From Novakomyces olei (Eukaryota), in assembly GCA_016906335.1 (NCBI GenBank), contig JADEYG010000009.1:744001-808000 (forward strand): DNA of 64,000 nucleotides. The letters are read 5' to 3'. A model generated the notes under the pieces. It saw nothing but the letters and a program-made list of their open reading frames with translations, was not told the DNA's origin and did no database searches. Positions 24,216-62,011 of the stretch are shown here, one piece after another. A program made the position numbers and the translations under genes. How positions within the stretch are numbered: the stretch's first letter is position 1; each line of letters opens with the position of its first letter.

Positions 24216-25938
24216 ATGTCGGAGCCTGAGGCAGAAGCTTCATTTCCTTCAGGGCCAGGGCACGATTTTAATAGGCCAGTGGAGGACCAAGTCACTTTAA
24301 CGCCGTCGCGAGAAACATGGGATTTGAACGAGTACGGACCTCGTGGATTAGAGTCTGTTGAAGAAGAAGAAGATCGCTCATTGCCGAAGCCAGTTGGCCA
24401 TAAAGACCCTTGGCAATTATTTACCGTAGCATGGTTAACTCTGTTTTCATTTTACGGAGTTTTGGCCCGTGTCGGGTTAGATGCGCTCGAAAGTTATCCT
24501 GGTCAGCCTGTATTTGCACGCGTGTGGCCGCAGATTGTGGGCTGTATTGTGATCGGATTTATGCTTCAAGATCGCGCTGAAACGATTCGGCAGTACAAGT
24601 AAGTTTTGATTAAAGCTAGATACAAGAGCATTATGGGGCGCTTTGCCATTTGATATAGGTTCAAAAGAATAGATTTCAGCACGCTGATTAACGAAACTAA
24701 GCACAAAATGAACAAGAAATAAGGATAAAAAAAATAAGGATTAAAAAAATAGGGATTAAGAAAAAGGATTAAAAAAAATTAGATTGAACAAATAAAAGAG
24801 TAAACAAGAATGGACTAATCGTATGAGATCATTATCGCTATATGTTGGAATAACCACGGGGTTTTGTGGATCAGTTACCACCTTCTCATCATGGATGCTA
24901 GACACTTACTACGCAATGGCTAATCAGGCTGGATATCCTCGCGCTAAAGGTTACAATTTCCTCGCGTTAGTTTCTCAGGTCATGATAACGCTTCTGGCTG
25001 CGTTCGCGTCTATGCGCCTTGGAGCACGTGTCGCTCTCGCGCTTGAACGAAATAAGATTGACATAAAATCTTCAGGCGTGCAAGTTGTTGCTGTATATTC
25101 TGATTACCTGGCTCTTGCTTTCGCAGTATTACATTACATTGGAATCGCATTGGCCACCGCGTTTATGCCTGCTTACCGTGGAACCGTTTTATTTGCCGTC
25201 GTCTTTGGTCCGATAGGTACGACTCTTATCTGACTGTTTAATATCTTGCGTTCACTAGTGAATCTCCATTTCTTGTTCATAAATTGGTTCTTACAGCAGG
25301 TACACTACTACGATGGCAGCTGGCCCGGTTTAACGCCGTTCAACCTTCATTTCCTTTGGGAACATTCGCTGCCAACACGATCGGTTCATTGGTAGCCGCA
25401 GTGTGTATTCTGCTGCGGGCTGATGCAGGCCTCGATCGTTTACAATGTCAGGTTGTGAATGGAGTCGTGGATGGCTTTTGTGGTAATTGGTTCTCTTATT
25501 CAGTTCGTTCATTTTCCTCTATACATGATTATGTACCTGTTCACATATTTAACTATTTAATTATTGAGTTATTTATTTACAATTTCGTTTTATTTGTGAA
25601 TTTTAATATTCTCTTTTGCATTGTTTCTCAATCAAATTCTAACCAACCATAGGCTGTCTTACTACATTGTCTACTTTTATAATTGAAGTTGACATGCTTA
25701 AAGCTCGTCATAGCACCTTTTACGCTACAGTTAGTGTAATTACATCCTTCGTGTTGTTTGTGCTTGTCACAGGAGTAGAGGTAAGGTTTTCAAAAGTCAT
25801 TATACTAATAAAAAAAAATACTTTAATAGTGTTTATTTACACATCAATTTGTTCAACATTAGTTTTTCATTTCCATTCATTCAAAAGTTAACGTGATAGC
25901 ATTGGACTCAAGGGAAACCTCTGTGTGACTTTACTTGA
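24216..25938 (+). CDS. FEX1: Fluoride exporter FEX (two fused CrcB/Fluc domains), 5 exons
   Basis: GVLARVGL, GITTGFCGSVTTFSSW, GTLLRWQLARFN, FPLGTFAAN, DGFCG|CLTTLSTF. Stop TGA at 25936-25938. Confidence 0.9.
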
Positions 25939-30191: not shown

Positions 30192-31595
30192 ATGTCGCAA
30201 ACATACTTGACTATACAAAAATCTGCCGCCGAGGCGGATATGGCGCTTCACTTACACCCTCAAGCGAACCCGGCACAAACCGCAACTTCCGAGTCTATTG
30301 TATTTTCAAAAGGCGACGGAGGCTACGTCATTGATGTTGAAGGTAGACGGTACCTCGAGGCAGTTGCCAGTCTGTGGTGTGCTTCTCTTGGCTTCAACCC
30401 GCCTCGATTAGTTGAAGCAGCCACAAAGCAATTGAAAAACTTGTCGACTTACCACTGCTTTGGCCTTAAAACCAACGAGTGCATTGCTCAAGTTGTACAG
30501 CTGCTGGAACAGATCTCTCCCATTCCGAACCCACACTTTTACTTTACTAATTCCGGATCCGAGTCGAATGACACGGCGGTTAAATTGGTCTGGCATTACC
30601 ATTCTTCCATTGGGAAACCGGACAAGCGCCGGATTATTAGCCGTGACGGAGCTTATCACGGCTCAACTGTTATGGGAGCCGCTCTTTCCGGTCTGCCTCA
30701 TATGCATCACCTGTTCAATATCCCCACGCAGGATATACTCTACGCTGGCAAACCGCATTACTACCGGGAAGCATTGGACGGCGAGTCAGAGACCCAGTTT
30801 AGTGAGCGACTGGCCCGTGAGCTGGAAGAGATGATTGTCCGCGAGGGACCCGATACTATCGGCGCCATGATCGTGGAGCCTGTTATGGGAGCCGGAGGTG
30901 TCTATGTCGCACCGGACGATTATTTCCGACGCATTCAAAAAGTTCTGCGCAAGTACGATATACTGCTGATTAGCGACGAAGTCATTTGCGGCTTTGGCCG
31001 TACTGGCAACTACTTTGGCTGCCAAACTTATGGTTATGAGCCGGATATCATCTCCACAGCCAAGGCTATTTCCGCTGGTATTTTGCCTTTTGGTGCAGTT
31101 TTCATCGGGGAACGTGTGTACAAAGGAATCACCAAGGGATCTCAGCAAGTGGGTGTCTTTGGACACGGGTACACGTACTCTGGCCACCCGGTAACTGCCG
31201 CTGTAGCAGCGGAAACACTCAAAATCTACCAGGAAATGGATTTGATTAGCAAGTCGCGTAAACTGGGAGAGCGTCTAATGGAAGGACTGCATAAGAAAAT
31301 CGCTCCTCATCCTCTAGTGGGCAATGTGCGGGGTAAAGGGTTCGTTGCGGCGGTAGAAGTCGTGGCCAATAAGGCGACAAAGGAGCCCTTTGATCCTTCA
31401 ATGGCCGTGGGGAAGAAGATTGATGCTGTATGTACCAGCAAGGGACTGATTATTCGTCCAATGAAGGATTCAATTGCCCTCTGCCCGCCTTTTATTCTGA
31501 CCGTCGAGCAGGTTGATGAAATCGTCGACACGCTCAAGGCCGCGCTGGACGAGGTGGCGCCTCAAGTCTTGCCCCAGTCGGAGAGCATCCTTTAA
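30192..31595 (+). CDS. Class-III PLP aminotransferase (omega-amino acid / polyamine:pyruvate type), intronless
   Basis: YLEAVASLWCASLG, FTNSGSESND, AYHGST, EPVMGAGG, ISDEVICGFGRTG, PDIISTAK (PLP lysine), FGHGYTYSGHP. Confidence 0.93.
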   Translation: MSQTYLTIQKSAAEADMALHLHPQANPAQTATSESIVFSKGDGGYVIDVEGRRYLEAVASLWCASLGFNPPRLVEAATKQLKNLSTYHCFGLKTNECIAQVVQLLEQISPIPNPHFYFTNSGSESNDTAVKLVWHYHSSIGKPDKRRIISRDGAYHGSTVMGAALSGLPHMHHLFNIPTQDILYAGKPHYYREALDGESETQFSERLARELEEMIVREGPDTIGAMIVEPVMGAGGVYVAPDDYFRRIQKVLRKYDILLISDEVICGFGRTGNYFGCQTYGYEPDIISTAKAISAGILPFGAVFIGERVYKGITKGSQQVGVFGHGYTYSGHPVTAAVAAETLKIYQEMDLISKSRKLGERLMEGLHKKIAPHPLVGNVRGKGFVAAVEVVANKATKEPFDPSMAVGKKIDAVCTSKGLIIRPMKDSIALCPPFILTVEQVDEIVDTLKAALDEVAPQVLPQSESIL

Positions 31596-38735: not shown

Positions 38736-41700
38736 TGTTGGAATATGTTGAAATACATCTAAATATGGGCCAAACCTAATTATTATTTATGCAACTTATA
38801 CACACTATTGCTTATGAAGCCTATACTCACATACAATTATTTATATAGGTTGTAGCTAGAATTAGTAAATTTAACACAAAAGTTCAACAGGTTATGAGCC
38901 TGGATCGTTAGCCTTCAGAGCCAACAAAAATTTTTTGCTATCCAAAAAGCACTATCGTTTAATTAATTCTGTTCTCCCTTATCACCTGACAATCCTGTCA
39001 TAATGGAAACAGACGCACCACTGAATATGCCTGCTCAGCCTCAAGGAAATAGCAGCTACTCTGCTCAAACAGCCCCTACGAAAATCTCTTTTCAGAAGCT
39101 CCGAGGCTCTGAAAACTACGATATATGGGCGCAGAACATGAAGGCCCATCTCAATGGGCTTGGCTTGTTTGGTTACGTCTCTGGCCGAATTAAGGAGCCA
39201 GAGAAGAAAGTCAAGGAAGTGAAGGACGAAAAGACGGCCGAGATCGAGGACGACACGGCGTCTATCCTCTCCGACGACGATTACGAGGATGTAAGCGATG
39301 AGCTAGCCACCTGGAAGCGCAACTGCTCCCTAGCTCTAAGCTACATCTTGAGTAATATATCTGTTGAAATCAACAGACGTGTGAAAAGACTTACAAGTCC
39401 CAAGGAAGTTTGGAGACTTTTGAAAAGGGAATATGCGCAGGCAGGTTTCTCCTACGTCGGTACTTGCTACCAAAATTTCTTCAGCCTGAGACTCCCCAGT
39501 GAACAGGCTAGAACTCCAGAGGAGTACTGCCGTAAGTTCGTCGACCGCCTAGAAACCTTTGAGTCTGCAGGGGAAAAGGTCGGAAGATATACACAAATTT
39601 ATACTTTCCTTACTGGTATAGAAATGGAGTATAGTCAGTTTGTCCAAATACAAAAAGACACCTACGACGTAAAGAACCCACTAGACCTTGACGTGATAAT
39701 AGAACGCTTTCTAAATCACAGTCGTGGCCGGGTTGCAGACTCCGAATTGGCATTAGTCGCCAAAGGAGCCAACTACAAGAAAAGGGACCAGTGCAGTTTC
39801 TGCAACAAGACTGGACATCTCTCGGAAAATTGTTGGAAAAGGTTCCCCGAAAAGAGACCAGGAGTTACAAAAAGGGGGCCGAAGGAGGCGACCAAGACGT
39901 TTGTTGCCTCTGCGCAAGTTTCTTCTTTTACGGCAGTGCCAAATACAACGGCATGGATTGTGGACTCAGGTGCTACACAGCACATGTGTAACAGTCCAGC
40001 TTGGATTACGAACCTTAAGCCCACGAACAATCAGTGGGTGGAGACGGGGTCAGGCAAGACTCCGGCCCTAGGAGTTGGCAACGTCACACTCAATGTGCGC
40101 AAGCCAAGTGGTGTGGTAACGCAACTCACATTTGGCAACGTACTTTATGTGCCAGCTCTGCCCATCAATCTTCTCTCCATGACAATACTTGTCGAGCGAG
40201 GTCTGAACTTTGAGATACGCTCTGAAGGGCCTTTGGTCAGACACGCAGGAGAAGATGAGGTACTTACGAAACTAATCAGTTATAAGGGCCACTGGATGTT
40301 GGATTGTATTGGTCAACCGACAAGCAAAAACCAGTCCAAAGACGAAGCAACAGCCCTTATCGTAGCCACAGAGAATGTCTGGCACAAGCGTTATGGTCAC
40401 GCTTCGGCCAAAACAATCTCTCAGACGGCAAACCATGTTATAGGCATGGACATTGCCCCGGCATTAGAGCCGGAGGGTGCATGTACAGTCTGCGAACTCT
40501 CCAAGTCGCACAGGACAGTACATCGCCAGACACTGGAGCGAGCTACCGAGAAGCTCGACCGAGTCTACATGGACTTAATGGGTCCAATGAGCCAAATATC
40601 CAGAGACGGATACCGCTACGTAATCATCTTGACCGATGAAGTCAGTCGTTTTCGCTGGATCATACCTTTGACCTCGAAAACAGCTAGCTCAGTTCTTTCG
40701 GCAATAAAGCTCTGGACTGAATTCATCAAGAATTACTTCAAGGCAATGCCAAAGTCCATTCGCACAGACGGCGGTCTTGAATTTACCTCTGCTCAACCCT
40801 GGCTTACATCACTGGGAGTTAAAATTGAAAACACCGTGCCATATACGCCTGAGCAAAATGGAATGGCAGAGCGTAGCAACGGGCTAATAAGTGAAAAGGC
40901 CAGGGCACTCAGCATCGGAGGATGTTTGAAGGAAGACATGTGGTATGCAGCTATGGAGACAGCTACATATCTCCTCAACGTACAATTCACCAAAACGCTG
41001 AACATGACACCTCATGAAGCACTTTATGGGACACTGCCACGAGTGGACCACATTAAAGTGTATGGATGCAGAGTATATGTCCACATCCCACATGAAAAAC
41101 GTGTCAAAAGCGACAAACTAGGCAGTCGTGCACAGATTGGCAAGCTGGTTGGTTACGAAAGCCATACCATTTATAAAATCCAGCTGCCAAGCGGCCAAAC
41201 GACACGGTCAAGTCACGTCAGGTTCGATGAAAACACCATCGATGACTACACCGGCAACAACATCAGCAGCCCACCAAACTTTCAGGTGCCTGATGAAGAA
41301 AATGCTGCCTTGTCCCCACTCCTGACACCGCTGCCGTTGCAGCAGCCGGAGGGTGAGGACAGTGATAAAGTCACTATCACCGAAGGGCCGCCGACAACGA
41401 CAGCAGCGGACAGGAGTGAGGAGGACTCATCAAACAATGAAAAAATCCAACAAGCTAGCAACACTCACGCTGAGCCGGAGCAAGCTAACAACACTCACGC
41501 TGAGCCGGAACAGCAACTGACAATAATTAGTGAAGCACCTGTGCCGAGCCTGCGTCGGTCAGCACGTCTAAACGAAACGCAGAAGTCTCTACTTACTGTT
41601 GCTCATGCAGTTTACATAGAGCCGCAGACTCTCCGAGAGGCACTCGAGTCCCCACAAGCTCGGGAATGGACCGAAGCTTGCCATGCGGAACTCAAGTCGT

Positions 41701-43390
41701 TAGACAAAAACGAGACCTGGACGTTAGTGAACAAGTCCGACATTGAAAAGGGCAAGCACGTCTTAAAAGGCAAATGGGTCTTTAAAATAAAGAGAGACAC
41801 AGAAGGCAATGTGCAAAAATACAAAGCAAGATGGGTTGTAAAAGGTTATTTGCAAAAGGAAGGAATTGATTACCAAGAGACCTTTGCGCCTGTAGTACAT
41901 ACCGCGACGTGGAGAATGGTATTGGCCATTGTCGCATTCAAAGATCTGGAATGTGACCAGATGGACTTCGAAACCGCTTTTCTGAACGCACAAGTACAAG
42001 AAGAAGTGTACGTCGAACAACCTGTCGGCTTCGAAACCGGAAAGGACCAAGTATGCAAGCTTCGCAAAACATTGTATGGACTAAAACAGTCTCCACGCGA
42101 GTGGTACAAATGTCTGCGCCAGATGTTCAGGCAGCTTGGGTTCATTCCCCTTAAATCCGATAACTCAGTATTCGTCCGGGACGAGAATGAAATAATTCTC
42201 GCCCATACAGACGATTTGCTGGTCATCGCAGCTACAGAATCAAAGTTAGCTGACATTAAAAAGGAAATTAAAACGGCTTACGTAGCCAAGGACCTCGGTC
42301 CGGCGAACCTTTTCGTCGGAATACAAATTGTACGAGACAGAAAGCATAGAAGCATAGAGCTTAAACAAGAACACTATGTCACTAATATGCTTGAACGCTT
42401 CGGAATGATGGACTGCAAGGCCATCGAAACCCCAATGGCCGAGGATAGAGAGGCCATTGGTGGACAGCCCGAGTCAGAGCCGACCAAAGAGATGCAAACG
42501 CAGTACCAGCAACTCATAGGTTCGCTGCTCTTTGCGTCGACTCAGACGCGACCCGACATAGCCTACGCGGTTAACACCCTGGCTCGACATATGCACCGGC
42601 CAAGTGAAGAGCACTTGACTGCTGCCAAAAGAGTCTTGAGATATCTAAAAGGAACAAAAACTTACAGTATCAAGTATAGATTCAGCAAGGACAACATGGA
42701 CCTAAAGGTCCATACGGACTCGGACTGGGCAGGCGACCCAGACACCAGACGGTCATGCTCTGGTTTCATACTCTTGGCCGGTGGAGGACCTGTGTCGTGG
42801 AGATCAACTCTCCAAACGACAGTGGCTCTCTCCTCCACTGAGGCCGAGTATGTTGGCTTGTCGATCAGTGGCCAAGAGGTGCTGTGGGCCCAACAGCTCC
42901 TCTTGGAACTGAACTACAATGAGGACGACAGATTGCCTATGATTGTCCTGGAGGACAACCAAGGCGCTATCGCCCTCGCCAAGAACCCGCAATTTCACCG
43001 AAGGACAAAACACGTAGCCATCCGATGGCACTTTGTCCGTGAGCTAACGGAGTCAGAAAGAATAAAAATCAAGTACATACCAACCGCTCGTATGGCAGCT
43101 GACGGCCTTACAAAACCGCTCCGCAAGCTACTGTTTAAAAACTTTACAAAGTTAGTTGGAGTGAGCGAATAAAGTAAGTAACCTTACCACGTGATCCGCG
43201 CATACAGGCTTACCGTGCCCGCCGCCTGGGAGGGTGTGTTGGAATATGTTGAAATACATCTAAATATGGGCCAAACCTAATTATTATTTATGCAACTTAT
43301 ACACACTATTGCTTATGAAGCCTATACTCACATACAATTATTTATATAGGTTGTAGCTAGAATTAGTAAATTTAACACAAAAGTTCAACA
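38736..43390 (+). mobile_element. Full-length Ty1/copia LTR retrotransposon (4655 bp)
   Basis: 154-bp LTRs 38736-38889 and 43237-43390 (TGTTG...CAACA), identical by eye; 5-bp TSD AAAAC on both sides; PBS GGTTATGAGCC 38890-38900; PPT GGGAGGGTG 43228-43236. Confidence 0.98.
39003..43172 (+). CDS. Gag-Pol polyprotein (Gag, zinc knuckle, protease, integrase, RT, RNase H; copia order)
   Basis: CSFCNKTGHLSENC, WIVDSGAT, WHKRYGH...CTVC, RTDGGLEF...EQNGMAER, LYGLKQSPREW, HTDD, DSDWAGD. One uninterrupted 1389-aa ORF. Confidence 0.97.
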   Translation: METDAPLNMPAQPQGNSSYSAQTAPTKISFQKLRGSENYDIWAQNMKAHLNGLGLFGYVSGRIKEPEKKVKEVKDEKTAEIEDDTASILSDDDYEDVSDELATWKRNCSLALSYILSNISVEINRRVKRLTSPKEVWRLLKREYAQAGFSYVGTCYQNFFSLRLPSEQARTPEEYCRKFVDRLETFESAGEKVGRYTQIYTFLTGIEMEYSQFVQIQKDTYDVKNPLDLDVIIERFLNHSRGRVADSELALVAKGANYKKRDQCSFCNKTGHLSENCWKRFPEKRPGVTKRGPKEATKTFVASAQVSSFTAVPNTTAWIVDSGATQHMCNSPAWITNLKPTNNQWVETGSGKTPALGVGNVTLNVRKPSGVVTQLTFGNVLYVPALPINLLSMTILVERGLNFEIRSEGPLVRHAGEDEVLTKLISYKGHWMLDCIGQPTSKNQSKDEATALIVATENVWHKRYGHASAKTISQTANHVIGMDIAPALEPEGACTVCELSKSHRTVHRQTLERATEKLDRVYMDLMGPMSQISRDGYRYVIILTDEVSRFRWIIPLTSKTASSVLSAIKLWTEFIKNYFKAMPKSIRTDGGLEFTSAQPWLTSLGVKIENTVPYTPEQNGMAERSNGLISEKARALSIGGCLKEDMWYAAMETATYLLNVQFTKTLNMTPHEALYGTLPRVDHIKVYGCRVYVHIPHEKRVKSDKLGSRAQIGKLVGYESHTIYKIQLPSGQTTRSSHVRFDENTIDDYTGNNISSPPNFQVPDEENAALSPLLTPLPLQQPEGEDSDKVTITEGPPTTTAADRSEEDSSNNEKIQQASNTHAEPEQANNTHAEPEQQLTIISEAPVPSLRRSARLNETQKSLLTVAHAVYIEPQTLREALESPQAREWTEACHAELKSLDKNETWTLVNKSDIEKGKHVLKGKWVFKIKRDTEGNVQKYKARWVVKGYLQKEGIDYQETFAPVVHTATWRMVLAIVAFKDLECDQMDFETAFLNAQVQEEVYVEQPVGFETGKDQVCKLRKTLYGLKQSPREWYKCLRQMFRQLGFIPLKSDNSVFVRDENEIILAHTDDLLVIAATESKLADIKKEIKTAYVAKDLGPANLFVGIQIVRDRKHRSIELKQEHYVTNMLERFGMMDCKAIETPMAEDREAIGGQPESEPTKEMQTQYQQLIGSLLFASTQTRPDIAYAVNTLARHMHRPSEEHLTAAKRVLRYLKGTKTYSIKYRFSKDNMDLKVHTDSDWAGDPDTRRSCSGFILLAGGGPVSWRSTLQTTVALSSTEAEYVGLSISGQEVLWAQQLLLELNYNEDDRLPMIVLEDNQGAIALAKNPQFHRRTKHVAIRWHFVRELTESERIKIKYIPTARMAADGLTKPLRKLLFKNFTKLVGVSE

Positions 43391-52243: not shown

Positions 52244-53925
52244 ATGGAGGACGATATTGAGGTATACTTTTGCGCCTATTGTTTTTTTGACTTGAAAATC
52301 TAATACTGTCCAGGGCCGTCTGCGCTCGCATAATCATGCGTTTGAGAATCTGTTATCATTGATCCCTTCAAACATGTATTATGCAGAGGACACATCGGTA
52401 GGTTTGCAATGCAAGTTTTATGTTTATTATATTGTTTAGATATTTGGTTGTCTGAAGTGCTTGTCACCGCAGGTTACCGCAGGCTTTTACCATTTATCTT
52501 GTTCCTTTGATTCAATCTTGCTGGAATATTTAAATTTAAATTTTTAATTTTTATATTCATTTTTATATATTGCAAACATGACTGTCGCTTACAAGCATTC
52601 AGAATCAATGGCGGAAACGACGGCAATCAAAACAGGCCAAAAAGGCGGCCAAGAAAGCCCGTCTTGACCCGGACGGAGGAGACGGATCTGCACTGGATAC
52701 TCGTCGAAAGCAGCAAGTCCAGAAAATCCAGACGGAAAGCGAAGACGATGGTGATGATAAGAGACAAAATGGTGTTGATGGCGGGGGAAATGGGGACGTG
52801 CAGGCTAACAAAAAGCAAGAGCTTAGTGTCAAGGAGCCGGAAACCCCCGTACAAAATGGTGTCTCTCCCGCGAAGAACGTTTCTGCTTCGTCACAGGATA
52901 CAAACAAAACAAAGCCTGTATTACAATCAAAACGAAAACATGAAAGAACGCAATCTAATACGAATGGAGAACAAGTGCCAAATAAACGCACAAGCCAGAA
53001 TTTTTCTAATGAGGATAAATCGGCTAATAAGAATAATAAGAATATAAACAGTGAACCCCAAAATTTTGTTGAAAACGGTGCAGAAACTGAAGATGTTTCT
53101 CAACCGCGAGAATCTGAGGCTGACGAAACCAAAACTATTGATTCAGACACAGCGCAACAAGAAAACTCGAGACCTGGTATTGCAGAGCTGCGGGAGCGAC
53201 TAGCACAAAAAATTGCATCACTACGAGCTGAGCGTAAGGCTCCCGCTAGTTCTCGTTCGGGCGACACGAATGCGTCTCAACAGACACGTGAAAGTATTTT
53301 GGAAGCTCGTCGCTTAAAATTGGAGAGGCAAAAAGAACGACGAAGACAGGAGAAGAAAGAGGCGGCCGAGAAGGCTCAAAAGACCAAAGAAGAGCAAGAA
53401 GAGTCTTTTAAACAAGACGAATCTCAGTCTTCTTCAAACAAAGACCGAGACAAGGCCGATCATTCTATTTTGTACGGTCGATTCACAGACTCTGAATCGG
53501 AACAGAAGAAGACGCGTCGCAATCCAGTTGATGCTAAAGGCGCCCTTAAATCAGTTCAAGCAAACAAAGAAAGAGTAGCAAAGTACGATGCAGAAAAACA
53601 GGCTCAAATACGGCAGTCTGACGCATGGCATTCTGCCCTATTAGCAGCTCGGGGGGACAAAGTCCGTAACAACGAAACATTGTTGAGTAAAACAGTACGG
53701 CGTAAGGAACAGCAAAAGCGCAAAAGTGAGAAACAGTGGGCTGAGCGTTTGGAGCGTGTAGAACAAGGGAAACAGAGCCGTCAAAGGCGGAGAGACGAAA
53801 ATTTGCAAAAAAGGAGTGACGCTAAAAAACGAGGAGTTCCTGACAATCGGGCTTCAGCCAAAGCGACGACTGGGAAAAAGCGTGCGCCTAGAGCTGGATT
53901 TGAAGGATCGATGAGGACACGTTAG
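52244..53925 (+). CDS. RRP14: Ribosome biogenesis protein Rrp14/SURF6, 3 exons
   Basis: RLRSHNHAFENLLSLIPSNMYY, KKARLDPD, LRERLAQKIASLR, GDKVRNNETLLSKTVRRKE, terminal RAGFEG. Confidence 0.9.
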
Positions 53926-54150: not shown

Positions 54151-55811
<1,661 letters not shown>

Positions 55812-56154
55812 TATGGCGTGTGCTTGCGCGTCTACGCTGACGGCAATTTAATTCAATTAAATTATCAGACGCACAGAATAACAATTTATTCGAATTATTG
55901 TGCCAGTAAATATAATATAGCTCAAATATAATTTATAAAAAAAAAAGGGAAAAAAGGGGGGAAAAAAAAAAGAAAGAAGGAAGGAAAAAAAGATCTAATT
56001 AAGCCATACTAATACAATCATTGTACTACTAATAATCCATTTAGTATATGTACGAAAAGTACGAGTTCGCCTACAAACTGCCACGGCGCGTGACAAACGC
56101 GACATGTACAAGTGCTAAGCGTTAATTGATGCATAACCTACGGCCTCCGTCCTA

Positions 56155-56757
56155 TCATAAAATCCCCTTTGCGTGTAATATATTTCGTAAACTGCGAGCT
56201 GTAAAGCCCAGGTACTCTGCAGTATCCTGTGCCGCAGTATCAGCGCGCTCCAAATCGTTTAAACGATTATCCAGAAAAGTGTAGGCTTCGGTCGGATTGG
56301 AAAGTAGCAGTTCTGCCCCGGCATAAGCACCGCCGAGAGCTGCAACTCTCGAGCAGTTAAGTACTGATGGAGAAGTAGAAAGTCCAGCCAATCGCAGCAT
56401 CAATGCACTCTGAAAAGACAGTTCGCGAGCAGCTCGTGGTACGTTGTGTGGCTGAGCCATGTGCGCAAGAGCTTCAGGCCAATGTGCTGCATATCGAGCG
56501 GTACCATCAAGGCGAGCCCTACAGATTTCGTGTAGTCGGGGGTACGACACATTCGAGGATGGAGGAAACTTTGCGATGAGAGAGTGCTGTTGCTCCGTCC
56601 AAAAGTGCTGAATTAAAGCGGCTGCCGGGTCTGGGAAAAGATGCTGCGTCACTGAAAGGTAACCTGAATCCCGGCATCCATTACGTATAGCGGCAGCTGT
56701 AAAGCCGCACGCATCTACGTGCCTTAGAGCGGCTTCTAACACGGTGCGTTTGATCAT
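56155..56757 (-). CDS. COQ9: Ubiquinone biosynthesis protein Coq9
   Basis: VLEAALRHV..CGFT..AI..G..DSGY, WPEALAHMAQPHNVP; fungal Coq9-like C-terminus. Confidence 0.78.
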   Translation of the reverse strand: MIKRTVLEAALRHVDACGFTAAAIRNGCRDSGYLSVTQHLFPDPAAALIQHFWTEQQHSLIAKFPPSSNVSYPRLHEICRARLDGTARYAAHWPEALAHMAQPHNVPRAARELSFQSALMLRLAGLSTSPSVLNCSRVAALGGAYAGAELLLSNPTEAYTFLDNRLNDLERADTAAQDTAEYLGFTARSLRNILHAKGIL

Positions 56758-56872
56758 TGTGTGGCACTAACCCAGAGATTTGCGCGACAATGAACAGAAT
56801 TTGCCTTATAGGGTTATATACCCAAAACTTTCTATTTCCTATTATTTTCACGCTCGATATAGTCTATTAGAA

Positions 56873-56970
56873 GCAGGTATGTTCCGAGTGGTTTAAGGAG
56901 TTGCACTTAAGGTTTATCCAGCTATGCAATGCTCGTTAAGAGTTCGTGGGTTCGAACCCCACTGCCTGCA
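56873..56970 (+). tRNA. tRNA-Leu(UAA) with a 12-nt intron (56912-56923)
   Basis: Acceptor GCAGGTA/TGCCTGC, anticodon arm TTGCA-CT-TAA-G^A-TGCAA, long variable arm GCTC/GAGT, T-loop GGTTCGAACCC, downstream T-run. Confidence 0.93.
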
Positions 56971-58743
56971 TCATAATTTTTTGTTTTTTCAATTAGGCAA
57001 TCGTTTGTGGATAAAACTATTGGGTTCAAAAGGGTTGGAGCTAATTAGATGTGTTTGCAGAATGCCTCTATATAACGCAGCAATAGCCACTAAACTCAAC
57101 AAGCGCCTTAATCAATTGTGCATAACACAATTGGTTCATTTGCCTCAAAAATTGCGAACAAAAAATGGTTGTTCTTTAACTACTGGATATTTATATCCAC
57201 TAAACGCAAATGCAATTCAGCGTCTATCTCTCTGCGCTTATAAGTCGTTTAAAACACGTCACTACTAATTGTCCATTGATCGGTGAATACTTTCGAATAA
57301 CGTAATAAAACATAAATAATGGTCCAATCTCACGCTACGGAGTAGAAACGCGTATGCGATTAGTAGGAGAATTTTAAATTAGCGTAAATGGCTTGGCCTA
57401 TGGAATCCAATCACAACAGACAGGCAAAGAGCACGGATCACGGGAATAAAGCACGTTGGCCGTCGACTTTTGTGGTACACCGCATACTTTTCTGCAGTGT
57501 ATAGGCGACAAAAGGTTGCACACACACCAGTATATGAAAACCGCGGAGTTGTGAGTCAGGCTACATAGTACGTACATACGGCGGATAGTATTATATAGAA
57601 GAACAGAAATTTCAAATTCATTTAAGCTCGTTCAGACTCATCCACGTAATTGCAGCTGCGTATGAGGCACACCGACCAATCTACAATCAATAGCGACAGA
57701 GTGACTCCGCTCTGCTTGGCAGCAGTGGCACGAAACTTTGGTTAAACCCTAACCCCATACATCAGTGACCACTCGTGTCCGGCAGTAGCATAACTTGTAA
57801 CGCAGGCAAGGGGAACACAAATCTGTGCTGGCAGCGTTACGCACATGTTATACGCAGTACTGTCACGCACACAATAATTCTGCAAGCGCAAGAGTACTGC
57901 TGCATCCATCAAAAGTAGGAACAAAACCTTTTATGACGGCCGTTCGAGTGTGACTTTTAAATTGTTGTTGGAGTCTGTTTGCTGACCTTTATCGCTGCTG
58001 TCCCTTGGGTGTGTGCGGGTACTTTGGTGTTTTGTGTGTGTTTGCCTGTTCCTTTTCCCTGATCCATCACTCTTCTCCGATCAAGTTCCCACTGCGACTC
58101 CCGCAGCATTCGGGCACCGAATAGGATAACGTCAGTTCGAAACTGATCTTGTGCCGGCAGCGTTTGATTCGTGTTGCCTCTTGTCCCAGGGTTTTCTCAG
58201 TGTCCTTTATCCCGTTTGCCTGCTGTTGCTGTAAACGAGGGAAAAAGGGATAGATCGGTGAGAGAGCCTCATTCAGCTGAATCATATTCCTCTCTCCTCT
58301 GAACAGCACCGTTCACCAACCCCGCCTCTCCCTCGGCCGGATCGGAAACAGTCGACAGTACGAGTCGTCGAATCCTCCGCCGTTTCAAGGGGTTATATTT
58401 ACGTATTGCGCTTTGATCCTTTTCTTTAAAGACAAGATCTACTTCACCTTCTTTCCGCTCGTCTCCGCGGCCGTTTAGATCGCCGCCTACGACTGCCGCC
58501 AACACGACGACTTCTTCCCGTTGGCGCCGACGCTCGCGATCTCGTTCGCGTTCTCTTTCTCGATCGCCTCCTCCTTCTCGACGGGCTCCTCGTTCCAGAT
58601 CGCCCTCTAGACGATCTCCTCCTAGAGCTTCTTCTCCTAGAGATTCTTCTCCACACGGGTACTCTTTTCGTCGCCGTAGATCTTCTTCTTCTTCCAGATC
58701 TCCTCCTCGAAGACGCCAATCCTTTTCACGCGCTAATCGTGAT

Positions 58744-59931
58744 ATGTCTTCCTCCACCCGTGAACCTTCCCAGCAAGACCGACGCGTCTATGTCGGCAAT
58801 TTGTCGTATGACGTTCGCTGGCAGCATTTGAAAGATTTCATGCGCCAGGCCGGTGAAGTCCTTCACGCAGACGTTCTTACTCTGCCCAACGGCATGAGCA
58901 AAGGCTGTGGTATCGTGGAATACGCTACTCCATCTGAGGCTCAGCGTGCTGTTGAGACTCTGAGCAATCAGCCTTTCATGGGCCGCCTCGTTTACGTCCG
59001 TGAGGACCGTGAACAGGAGCCCAGGTTCGGTCCTACTCAGGGCGGCGGAGCAGCTGCAGGAGGCAGTTCCCGATCTGCTGGAGCAGGCGGATCTTCTGCT
59101 GGAGGATTCACCGGCAGCTCTTACCGTGGAGCCGCTTATTCCTCCTCTGCTCACAGCGCTCCCTCTGCTGGAGGAGACTCTGTTGCTGGCCGCCAATTGT
59201 TTGTACAGAACCTGCCTTACTCTGTCGGCTGGCAGGATCTAAAGGACTTTTTCCGCCAGGCTGGGCAAGTTGTTCGTGCAGACGTTCACTCTGGACCTGA
59301 CGGCCGCTCAAAGGGATCCGGAATTGTTCTCTTTGATTCTGCTGCCGATGCTCAAAATGCTCTTTCTACTCTCAACGGAGTCGACTGGCACGGACGGCCG
59401 ATTGAAGTCCGTGAAGACCGGTTTGCCTCTGGAGCATCAGGCGGATCCTCCTTCCGCTCTGACCGAGGCGGATCCAGTTTCCGTGGCGCCGGCGGTGCAG
59501 GCTCTAGTTACAGAGGCTCCGCCAGCGGCTATGGCCGTGGAGGCCCTGCAGTTGAGCAAAACGAGTTTACTGACGATGCCTTTGGCGGAGGAGAGCCTAG
59601 TGATACTATCTTTGTAGGCAATTTGCCCTGGGCTACTAGCAATGAGGACCTGGACGATCTTTTCCGTACTGTCGGCCAAATTGTTCGTGCAGAGATCCAG
59701 CTGGAGCGCAGTGGCCGTTCTCGCGGATCAGGCGTTGTCCGTCTCGGCGATCCTGCAGCTGCCCAGCACGCAATCACCCGCTTTAATGGATACGTATACG
59801 GGAACCGTCCCCTTAGTATCTCGTTTGTAAGGTACGGTGGAGCTGGACCTGCTGTAGGAATCCCCCCGTCGGCTCCTGCTGCCGAACAGGCTACAGATTC
59901 TGCTTTGGATGGCAATGCTATGGTCGAGTAA
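58744..59931 (+). CDS. GBP2: Three-RRM SR-like mRNA-binding protein Gbp2/Hrb1 (AUG-initiated form; frame open further upstream)
   Basis: RRVYVGNLSYDVRWQHLKDF, LFVQNLPYSVGWQDLKDFFR (pseudo-RRM WQDLKD), TIFVGNLPWATSNEDL...YVYGNRPL; RGG-like linkers. Confidence 0.9.
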   Translation: MSSSTREPSQQDRRVYVGNLSYDVRWQHLKDFMRQAGEVLHADVLTLPNGMSKGCGIVEYATPSEAQRAVETLSNQPFMGRLVYVREDREQEPRFGPTQGGGAAAGGSSRSAGAGGSSAGGFTGSSYRGAAYSSSAHSAPSAGGDSVAGRQLFVQNLPYSVGWQDLKDFFRQAGQVVRADVHSGPDGRSKGSGIVLFDSAADAQNALSTLNGVDWHGRPIEVREDRFASGASGGSSFRSDRGGSSFRGAGGAGSSYRGSASGYGRGGPAVEQNEFTDDAFGGGEPSDTIFVGNLPWATSNEDLDDLFRTVGQIVRAEIQLERSGRSRGSGVVRLGDPAAAQHAITRFNGYVYGNRPLSISFVRYGGAGPAVGIPPSAPAAEQATDSALDGNAMVE

Positions 59932-60405
59932 GCGTTTGCAAATGAAAAGAAAAGGGGCACAAATGGCCCTTGTTCGTTGTCAAATCTTGAATCAAGTTTT
60001 GCTCTAGTTTAATTTTGTTGGTAATTCCTGCACCTATTTGTTTCAAATGCAGGTTTATCGTTATTATTACGCTTTTATTTCAATCTCAATAACTGCTCTT
60101 TTTGTTTTTGTCCTGACTGATTTCAATTTTACCTCTTAAAACAATTACCTTAACCTACGTTTGACAGAGTACGAAAAGAAATAGTTTTTATGTTTTCCAA
60201 ATCGTCTTGCCAATAGACCGTAAATTGGGGGTAAATCATGTAATCAAATATATAATTAATCAATCGATAAACTACTTCAAACTGGGCACGGCCAGTGGCC
60301 AGCCGTAAAATAAGTGATAAATTTAAAAACATAAAAAATAAATAATAATATATAAAGAACCCACTCAAACTACTCCCCAAAAATGCTCAATATGCAGTCA
60401 TAGTA

Positions 60406-62011
60406 TCACGATTGAAACCGGTCGGGCAGTAATACGGGCGCAACACAGCTCCAAATATAAAGAGCATGACAAACCCAGGCGCTTAGGGCTTTGACCCAAA
60501 CAACAGCAAAGCTTCGACCAATAACAACAAAAGGCGAATTGTCATTGTCGTCACCGCCAGTATTAGGCTTGCGATTGCCATTGTCCCGGTGCAATACGTT
60601 CCACCCCGTCAGCAAGGCGGCCACGTAGCAAGTGGCCAGAAAGAAAACTACGTGGAAAAGAGAGTAATGGTACTGGACATGGCCCTTTTCATCATCAACA
60701 ACATCGTCGCTTGCCTCCTCATCATCGTCTTGGTCACCAGAGGAAGACTGATGGCTGTTTAGAGCAGACGCCGGTAAAGCTCCGCTCTCAATTGCTGCCA
60801 ACAAGGCTTCCTGCCGCATACGAGCCCGCTCTGTCGGCTCTGACGTGACGAGATCATGCTGGTTCGAATCATCAGCAGCCAGCGATCTTTCTGGCCCTTC
60901 CAGACGAATAGCACTGCCTGTAGTGGCGGCCCGGGTAGTTGAATAAGCAATAGCAGCAAAAGTGAAGAGGGCGCCGACCACGGTAGTGGCAGTCTGACTC
61001 GAACGCGTTATGGGATTGCAGGTTCTGTAGGGCGGAGCACTCGACAGAGCAGAAAGGGTCAAATACGTAGTGTAAATGCAAACCATCCCAGACTGTGCGA
61101 TACCTGAGGCCGGATTGAATTCCTGCACTATTGGGTGGATGCTAGTGCCGGTGGAAACAATGCAGAGAATCAAGTTTATTGTAACAAAAGCCTGGTTCAT
61201 GCTGCAGCTTTTACGGGCAAAAAACACGTAGAGAAGGACTGTCATTGTCAGGGCGCCGGCATACATGCCCAGTGTCGATCCGACAAGGGCAATTTGCCAG
61301 CGGCGGCTGCTGCTGCTGCCGCTACTGGCCTCAATCCGCCGAAGGCAGTTTTCTGCCCACGAGTGAGCGCAGTCAATGAGCAGGAAAAGGCCAAACAGAA
61401 TAAAGAGGACAGATCCAAGTATAGCGACGTAGTTTCCCCAGAAGATGAAAAAGCCGTTAGGGATGAAGAAGGAGACGACTACCAGCAGTGCCCACAGCAC
61501 GAGCTTCGGGCCCCATAATCCATTCTGCAGGGAAGCCCGCTTGTCCCTGCTCGTGTATACTCCAACAAGCGTTAGGGCTAGGGTTAAGTGGAGCATGCCG
61601 AGGGCGAACCCGAACCGCTGCACTGCCAGCACTCCGTAGCATTCGCCGCGCGGGCATTTTACGTGCAGGTACCCTCGCATTATCGACTCGAGCTGCCGTA
61701 CGGCCCAGCCAGAGAGCATTATCCAGGAGACAATACTATTAAAAAGCAGTAGTAGCGCATAAGCGGCCCTCGTCATTACAGACGAGGCGCCGACTACGCG
61801 GCCGAGTCCGCCGCATGATTTGCAAAGTGCAGTGCACTGTGAATTAGCGTTGGCAGATCTAAAAAAAAGAAAGAAAAACGAAAAAAAAAAAGAACGATAT
61901 GAGGCAGTGCTGGAGACTTACAGCTGCCGCTCCACAAAACGAGGCGACCCAACTTCCTGCGGCCGTTGCTATAGGCAGCGCTAACGCTGGGATAGATAGT
62001 GCGAGGCCCAT
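60406..62011 (-). CDS. TMS1: Serinc/TDE family membrane protein Tms1, 2 exons
   Basis: MGLALSIPALA...SFCGAA, TRAAYA, ECYGVLAVQR, QNGLWGPK, LLIDCAHSWAE, WSCVAPVLLPDRF. Confidence 0.93.

Follow-up and report, generated by a model that had tools for sequence, protein, structure and literature searches.

Known fungal extensions that are initiated at non-AUG codons mostly add mitochondrial or peroxisomal signals to a protein. In yeast ALA1, a pair of ACG codons initiates better than a single ACG, and an A at position −3 matters most (PMC2909995), whilst the ACG start of Neurospora crassa cpc-1 is conserved across the Pezizomycotina (PMC5487733). A different group of fungal proteins, the SR-like shuttling proteins Gbp2 and Hrb1 of Saccharomyces cerevisiae and Sgh1 of Fusarium graminearum, carries an N-terminal arginine/serine-rich (RS or SR) domain followed by three RNA-recognition motifs (RRMs), and Sgh1 depends on its RS domain for nuclear localization (PMC9605648). 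Here, we analyze a stretch of 64,000 nucleotides (nt) from Novakomyces olei (GenBank assembly GCA_016906335.1, contig JADEYG010000009.1, positions 744,001 to 808,000 of the forward strand; hereafter "the window", to which all positions refer unless a locus is named), and, on its + strand, a Gbp2/Hrb1-type gene whose RS domain is encoded upstream of the first ATG and may be translated from a tandem ACG. In the literature that we searched, we found no link between Gbp2 and non-AUG initiation, and in the main text of PMC5487733 the terms Gbp2, Hrb1, and RRM have no occurrence.

The three RRMs are encoded in a + strand frame of 504 codons that runs open from 58417 to the stop codon at 59929-59931, and whose first in-frame ATG is at 58744. 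A preliminary description of this DNA had reported that the frame is open from 58417 to that ATG, and that no ATG occurs on the + strand in any frame from 57936 to 58743; both statements hold, and the open frame is immediately preceded by a TGA. The features concerned are:

57936-58743, + strand: 808 nt without ATG in any of the three frames, likely made up of the 5′ leader and the RS-coding region.
58414-58416, + strand: in-frame TGA, which ends the upstream extension unless the candidate intron at 58358-58431 is spliced out.
58417-58743, + strand: in-frame open extension of 109 codons, directly before the first ATG.
58495-58503, + strand: GCCGCCAAC, which leads into the first ACG and gives it A at −3 and −2 and C at −1.
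58504-58509, + strand: tandem in-frame ACG ACG, candidate non-AUG initiators.
58504-58743, + strand: 80-codon RS domain, with homology to the RS domain at the N-terminus of Gbp2/Hrb1 orthologues.
58744-59931, + strand: open reading frame (ORF) from the first ATG, 395 amino acids plus stop, with three RRM_1 domains.

Pfam recognizes RRM_1 in three stretches (E = 3.7e-55), located at approximately 58780-59010, 59191-59421, and 59602-59835, and the number, order, and spacing of the RRMs, as seen both in Pfam and in full-length alignments to orthologues, match those of the Gbp2/Hrb1 family. The best 120 matches of a protein search were almost all fungal, some of them named Gbp2 or G-strand binding protein, with E-values down to 1e-122, and the best-matching fungal Gbp2/Hrb1 orthologues are 50-65% identical to the window protein. 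The block SQQDRRVYVGNL, which precedes RRM1, is conserved, and is invariant save for a few positions in the alignment (A1). Judged by these comparisons, we take the locus to be the only gene for a Gbp2/Hrb1-type SR-like protein in a fungus that is probably an ascomycete, and its open frame encodes an RS domain and three RRMs in the same order as in Gbp2, Hrb1, and Sgh1. Protein searches with the 504-amino acid frame, and with its first 191 amino acids, returned no relative with more than ~65% identity over more than one domain.

Many orthologues have an N-terminus that is 40-120 residues longer than the 395-residue product of ATG 58744, and that starts with an RS domain. When these proteins were aligned with the window frame (BLASTP and MAFFT), the alignment ran across ATG 58744 into the RS frame. 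Window residues 55-109 (RRAPRSRSPSRRSPPRAS...) are matched to the RS region in the Pneumocystis-like model P0001, and residues 32-109 pair with P0009, where the BLASTP alignment begins at query residue 32 and subject residue 4. Similarity is kept right up to the Met, with PPRRRQSFSRANRDM in the window corresponding to GPPRSYEERAxAKExMM in the orthologues, and Met 58744 itself aligns with the conserved internal "MM" of the orthologue motif "..MMxxxRExSQQDRR". The earlier suggestion that the upstream frame encodes an RS domain is therefore borne out by its alignment with the N-terminal RS domains of Met-started orthologues. The extension aligns with RS domains from Pneumocystis, Orbiliomycetes, Dothideomycetes, and Sordariomycetes, although its low-complexity composition (26 R, 26 S, and 11 P among the 80 residues of the RS domain, with 20 RS/SR dipeptides) weakens the alignment.

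The RS frame runs on into the RRM frame without a frameshift over 240 nt, and the other open + frame in this region encodes Leu-rich nonsense. On its own, an open frame is weak evidence here. Most of the RS stretch is also open in a second + frame and in two − frames, and because this A-poor stretch leaves three other frames mostly open, the openness of the RS frame proves little. Pfam, at E-values up to 0.01, found no family in seven ORFs of 56897-58784, including an antisense ORF across the RS stretch. It is the alignment of the RS frame with orthologous RS domains, and the matching of ATG 58744 to a conserved internal Met, that lead us to regard the hidden domain as real homologous coding sequence, and we consider it highly probable that the RS stretch is coding now, or was so until very recently.

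As previously described, an ACG at 58504-58506 follows GCCGCCAAC and would add 80 residues to the protein. To this we add that a second ACG, which had gone unmentioned, adjoins it at 58507-58509. Apart from these two, 58417-58743 holds AAG 58429 and ACG 58489 as in-frame near-cognate codons, and no others. The context of the first ACG had been called close to a Kozak consensus, and the window itself agrees, in that A is found at −3 in five of its seven likely start ATGs (typically as CA(A/C)A). There is no stop after 58416, and there is no ATG in any frame up to 58744. The ACGs are also placed like the N-termini of orthologues, with the P0009 alignment beginning three residues from the P0009 Met. 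Based on its context and position, the first ACG is a plausible start codon.

Our tentative explanation, to which we would give a little less than an even chance, is that initiation at the tandem ACG generates the RS-bearing form of the protein. The idea that the coding sequence starts before ATG 58744, and takes in the RS domain encoded just 5′ of it, is put forward as a part of this explanation and shares its tentative standing. The mRNA, which we presume to be transcribed from upstream of the leader, would carry a long AUG-free leader, either unspliced or with two short introns. Part of the scanning 40S subunits would initiate at ACG ACG in the strong context GCCGCCAAC, giving rise to a 475-residue form with the RS domain. 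The remaining 40S subunits would scan 240 nt that are free of AUG in any frame, and would reach AUG 58744 to make a 395-residue form without the RS domain; this shorter form is to be expected, because ribosomes that pass the ACGs meet no AUG before 58744. The two forms should differ in location, and their ratio would set the nuclear and cytoplasmic pools, given that the RS domain is needed for nuclear localization in the F. graminearum orthologue. The existence of two isoforms is something that we infer. With somewhat less confidence again, we propose that the RS domain of this SR-like factor of mRNA export and surveillance (with nuclear-import and kinase-target functions by analogy with orthologues) is made solely via the tandem ACG, that an ancestral AUG exon has been lost, and that the stringency of initiation (the eIF1/eIF5 balance, or stress) sets the ratio of nuclear RS-bearing to cytoplasmic RS-less protein.

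No other ATG-free gap on the + strand of the window is as long as this one of 808 nt, 5′ of which the nearest ATG is at 57933; second in length is a gap of 484 nt. When the 808 nt were simulated with a first-order Markov model, 6.2 ATGs were expected, compared to none seen (P(0) = 0.0016), and each of the remaining permutations of the letters A, T, and G is found 6-19 times in the stretch. The depletion of ATG is real, and is located outside the RS part. Indeed, the 568 nt before the ACGs (57936-58503) hold no ATG versus 6.0 expected (P = 0.003 by the same model), and in the RS part (58504-58743) just 0.25 ATG is expected as a consequence of its composition. The GC content of the ATG-free stretch, at 0.42-0.58 per 100 nt, resembles that of the 100-200 nt before the starts of other genes (0.36-0.53). 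As a comparison set for splicing, we used seven introns of the window that were read by eye (33-173 nt; consensus CTRAY branch site and YAG acceptor), since an ORF-junction intron finder, intended for training a splice model, was too noisy and was set aside. Six of these seven introns have a GC content of 0.10-0.38, and the seventh (33 nt) has 0.52.

Several results weigh against initiation at the tandem ACG. ACG is usually a weaker initiator than AUG, so that most of the product would lack the RS domain, which orthologues need for nuclear localization. RNA structure 3′ of the ACGs does not go beyond that of shuffled sequences (z = −0.12; z = −1.57 over 329 nt), and a test of codon usage, applied to the RS stretch and to the pieces upstream of it, did not discriminate between frames. 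The length of the 808-nt gap is not unique, because the − strand holds an ATG-free gap of 799 nt at 59435-60239; this gap, the longest on that strand, covers, in antisense, the gene's 3′ part and 3′ flank. Acceptor-like sites are found just before the RS run (58431 and 58478), and under lenient rules there are 48 splice paths from an ATG to the RS frame. The remaining objections come from the manner in which orthologous loci start.

A metagenome scan produced 79 loci, none of which is close to the window: the nearest, L067, is 85% identical over RRM1 only, and its 5′ end is lacking. The models P0023 and P0132 share lineage-type residues with the window, and have no DNA among the 79 loci. Fifty-seven of the 79 loci have the motif QDRRVY[VI]GN, and 55 of these have an RS run upstream, the other two (L028 and L037) being dropped because the upstream frame was too short. 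Of these 55 loci, 38 have an in-frame ATG before the RS run and 17 have none; six of the 17 end at a contig edge inside the RS domain. The other 11 (L001, L003, L004, L015, L018, L021, L027, L039, L076, L078, and L079) have an RS exon without an ATG, in which the motif "(A)D..(D)xYRP" is preceded, as read by eye, by a branch site (CTAAC or CTGAC), a pyrimidine tract, and AG. The spliced locus L023 (...cacaggATGGACTCTGCAGG; L053 is alike) and L021 (...ccctaccagACTCTGCAGG) are identical downstream and diverge exactly after ATGG, which places the start codon on a first exon ending in ATGG. In the genomic locus L076, the exon ATGGCCATGG/GTAAGT (here and below, a slash marks a splice junction) lies 738 nt 5′ of the acceptor, and when joined it reads MADSGDTYRP, as do P0009 and L006. 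The 738-nt first intron of L076 is pyrimidine-rich and ATG-poor (two ATGs vs. 5.8 expected, P = 0.07). In Dothideomycete-type loci (MSYE.DNY.QRDRSP), the ATG is contiguous with the RS exon.

Since 11 of the 55 loci use a start-codon intron, we conclude from these comparisons that a distant AUG exon is a habit of the Gbp2/Hrb1 family, and that an RS exon without ATG is normal there. Start-codon introns are a described class (PMC1626468), and S. cerevisiae HRB1 has an intron (PMC2839277). Two Pneumocystis models (P0001 and P0125) part just before "APNPRW", which hints at a 5′-proximal intron in Pneumocystis too. The intron of HRB1 is near the 5′ end of the gene.

L076 has a further property that bears on the window. 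Directly 5′ of its start ATG, there is an ATG-free stretch of 1129 nt (1526-2654 of the locus), in which 7.6 ATGs were expected (P = 0.0003). Going by this one locus, the start codon in this family comes after an AUG desert. None of the candidate upstream ATGs of the window is preceded by such a desert, and the desert of the window runs straight into the RS frame. By analogy with L076, the desert would be a scanned leader, with initiation at its 3′ end, the place of the tandem ACG.

Some other features of these loci deserve mention. The 738-nt first intron of L076 (2665-3402) is C-rich, and is followed by a micro-exon of 27 nt. Loci of the "MAD..YRP" type that keep intron 1 (L001, L003, L004, L015, L018, L021, L027, and L039) are about as frequent as spliced ones (L002, L005, L006, L008, L023, L024, L030, and L053), and in L018 and L027 the sequence starts no more than one base from the donor GT. 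If those contigs are transcripts, retention of the start-codon intron may be frequent.

The preliminary description had offered upstream exons as an alternative, joined via introns at 58258-58306 and 58358-58431 that would bring in a more distant AUG. This alternative is stronger than was thought at the time, and has to be taken seriously because an ATG-less RS exon is normal in the family. The two proposed introns have acceptable signals, but cannot by themselves supply an AUG, because the exons that they join hold no ATG. An AUG formed across the candidate junctions was also considered, and was ruled out by the junction letters (TCG/CAC and ACA/ACA). The sites from which an upstream exon might be built are:

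57534-57556, + strand: upstream ATG with the consensus donor GTGAGT after 17 nt, phase 2; a speculative first exon, with T at −3.
57933-57953, + strand: nearest upstream ATG, opening a six-codon ORF (MTAVRV, stop); a candidate first exon or short upstream ORF.
58258-58306, + strand: candidate intron of 49 nt (GTGAGA...ACAG), found by eye; heuristic donor score 2.1, acceptor score 2.1.
58307-58357, + strand: candidate exon of 51 nt, open in the RS frame (HRSPTPPLPRPDRKQST) and without ATG.
58358-58431, + strand: candidate intron of 74 nt (GTACGA...TTGAT...pyrimidine tract...AAG), phase 0, which would remove the in-frame TGA.
58443-58478, + strand: another possible 3′ splice region in phase 2, with TTCAC, a pyrimidine tract, and TAG, onto which a distant ATG exon could be spliced.

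In its general form, this alternative posits a short AUG exon far upstream that is spliced to the RS exon, using the acceptor at 58431 (phase 0), or those at 58436 or 58478 (phase 2). The protein would then begin with a normal Met, and most of the ATG-free stretch would be intron. We consider this unlikely, but well worth weighing, given the branch site, pyrimidine tract, and AG that 11 of the 55 orthologous loci show in place of an ATG, the divergence of L023 and L021 after ATGG, the ATGG/GTAAGT of L076 at 738 nt from its acceptor, and the yeast and start-codon-intron precedents cited above. The window also has usable acceptors, as well as a consensus donor after ATG 57534. Candidate first exons would be ATG 57933 (+15 nt, donor GTGTGA, 484-nt intron) or ATG 57534 (+17 nt, donor GTGAGT), the latter requiring a 0.9-kb intron that ends at 58436 or 58478. 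The donors after ATG 57933 are weak (GTGTGA in phase 0 and GTGACT in phase 2), and this ATG, like ATG 57534, has T at −3, compared to the A at −3 in five of seven likely starts in the window.

The intron required would be at least 484 nt, versus 33-173 nt for the seven introns that were read by eye; its GC content would be 0.50, which is exon-like, and it would hold no ATG versus six expected (P = 0.002-0.003). The ATGG/GT signature of the family's first exon is absent, in that none of the 12 ATGs in 56980-57935 (each of which opens 4-50 codons) is followed by one base and GT. ATG/GT occurs twice (57165 and 57319), with the poor donors GTTGTT and GTCCAA. The AGs between the in-frame stop and the RS run are 58431 (phase 0), and 58436 and 58478 (phase 2), and none is in phase 1. 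The 3′ splice candidates at 58431 (TTGAT...AAG) and 58478 (TTCAC...TAG) have weaker signals than the CTRAY and YAG of the seven introns; in the candidate intron 58358-58431, both the AAG acceptor and the TTGAT branch are off this consensus, and its donor hexamer recurs in the eye-read intron at 25217. None of the 48 splice paths stands out, and the candidate ATGs lack the preceding AUG desert of the L076 start. Overall, the sequence of the window does not fit the start-codon-intron structure of the family well.

A second alternative is that the RS stretch is untranslated, or only accidentally translated, because an ancestral ATG at the position of the ACG was lost in this lineage or strain, or appears lost through a sequencing error, in which case the protein would start at Met 58744 without an RS domain. 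The ACG is a single T-to-C transition away from ATG and sits in a start-like context, and the conserved Met 58744 corresponds to the start of model P0036, whilst P0011, P0016, and P0087 start at another internal Met, and P0132, a relative of 327 amino acids, begins directly at "MSNSQQDRR". Constraint is not proven by the open frame either, given that other frames are open too in the A-poor stretch. Nevertheless, we view the loss of a start as improbable. Long disuse is hard to square with a frame that is intact over 240 nt and with similarity that reaches the Met, and the RS domain is needed for nuclear localization and full function in F. graminearum (PMC9605648). Moreover, an ACG in such a context would still be expected to initiate somewhat, based upon what is reported for ALA1 (PMC2909995), and for this reason a lost start grades into initiation at the tandem ACG.

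The weakest alternative, which we consider very improbable, is an earlier near-cognate start within 58168-58257 (e.g., TTG 58216), with introns 58258-58306 and 58358-58431 in coding phase and a Ser/Pro/Arg-rich N-terminus: with both introns removed, the RS frame is open to TGA 58165-58167, 71 codons before the ACGs (the chance of such openness being ~0.09 by a rough composition-based estimate), the 51-nt middle exon is divisible by three, and the junction ...NEGKRDRS/HRSP... recalls ...QRDRSPRR... of orthologues, but this similarity is low-complexity only, no homology supports the part 5′ of residue 30, C occupies −3 of TTG 58216, keeping the frame was part of the reason for picking the introns, and neither the AAG acceptor nor the TTGAT branch matches the YAG and CTRAY of the window.

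If initiation at the tandem ACG is true, the locus would be a natural case of a non-AUG start that decides whether an SR-like protein has its RS domain, and a two-codon mutation would provide a simple handle on what RS-less Gbp2/Hrb1 does. If an upstream AUG exon is spliced on instead, the locus would be ordinary, and the useful result would be the conserved start-codon intron of the Gbp2/Hrb1 family. Under any of these readings, gene callers that demand an ATG start the protein at the conserved internal Met and lose the RS domain, and the public models P0011, P0016, P0036, and P0087 look truncated in the same way. Like P0156 and P0157, these models take a conserved internal Met as their start (either "MTG..", which follows the RS domain, or the "MM" before RRM1), and all six are probably truncated annotations that miss the RS exon or the first exon.

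The surroundings of the gene include two features upstream on the same strand:

52582-53922, + strand: SURF6-domain gene, 4.8 kb upstream of the GBP2-like gene.
56873-56970, + strand: tRNA gene of 98 nt (Rfam RF00005, 39.1 bits vs. a gathering score of 29), which bounds the promoter region.

The tRNA gene was the sole Rfam match over 55500-60500, and ARAGORN made no call of a tRNA at 56873-56970. Given its length of 98 nt, the tRNA gene probably carries an intron, and it is followed by a T-run at ~56977. A divergent − strand ORF that starts near 56757, upstream of the gene, has no match in Pfam, and a Serinc/TMS1 gene lies downstream in convergent orientation. The Pneumocystis oryctolagi model P0048 (829 amino acids) fuses SURF6 with the orthologue, which suggests that the neighborhood is shared with Taphrinomycotina. 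P0048 reads "LQGNEHL" where the related P0001 has "MGNEHL", a difference that suggests a splice site, or a missing ATG, at the start of the Pneumocystis gene. Elsewhere in the window, an uninterrupted 1401-codon ORF at 38967-43172 (+ strand), with copia-type gag, integrase core, and RVT_2, is seemingly an intact Ty1/copia retrotransposon. An intronless class-III aminotransferase gene at 30192-31592 (+ strand) may be of bacterial origin: its best 120 matches are alphaproteobacterial or unnamed metagenome proteins with 49-56% identity, and no fungal name is among them.

How, then, does the locus compare with known systems? Gbp2, Hrb1, and Sgh1 start with an AUG before the RS domain, whereas the window gene has no AUG in the 808 nt before its first ATG. 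It is like the Pezizomycotina orthologues with an ATGG/GT first exon in that the genomic RS exon has no ATG of its own, and in those orthologues the first intron can be long. However, it differs from their start-codon intron in lacking an ATGN/GT or a phase-1 acceptor, and its upstream region is GC-rich compared to the window introns and wholly ATG-free. An in-frame near-cognate extension within a long leader, as we read the window, is also reported for N. crassa cpc-1 (the ACG of NCC8; PMC5487733), and peroxisomal isoforms of 6-phosphogluconate dehydrogenase likewise arise from an in-frame near-cognate extension (PMC7214817). The near-cognate starts of these two genes are conserved in many species, whereas the ACG of the window is known from one sequence. 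A close parallel is with ALA1. That case has been proven experimentally, whilst the present one is proposed from sequence, and the ALA1 extension is a 23-codon mitochondrial presequence, compared to an 80-codon RS domain in the window that would act as a nuclear-import signal by analogy with F. graminearum. As in the window, ALA1 has a tandem in-frame ACG ACG with A at −3, located 5′ of the AUG, with no AUG or stop in between (PMC2909995). In ALA1, the extension contains a segment that determines localization, and two isoforms arise through leaky scanning (PMC2909995), both of which we propose for the Gbp2/Hrb1-type gene described here.

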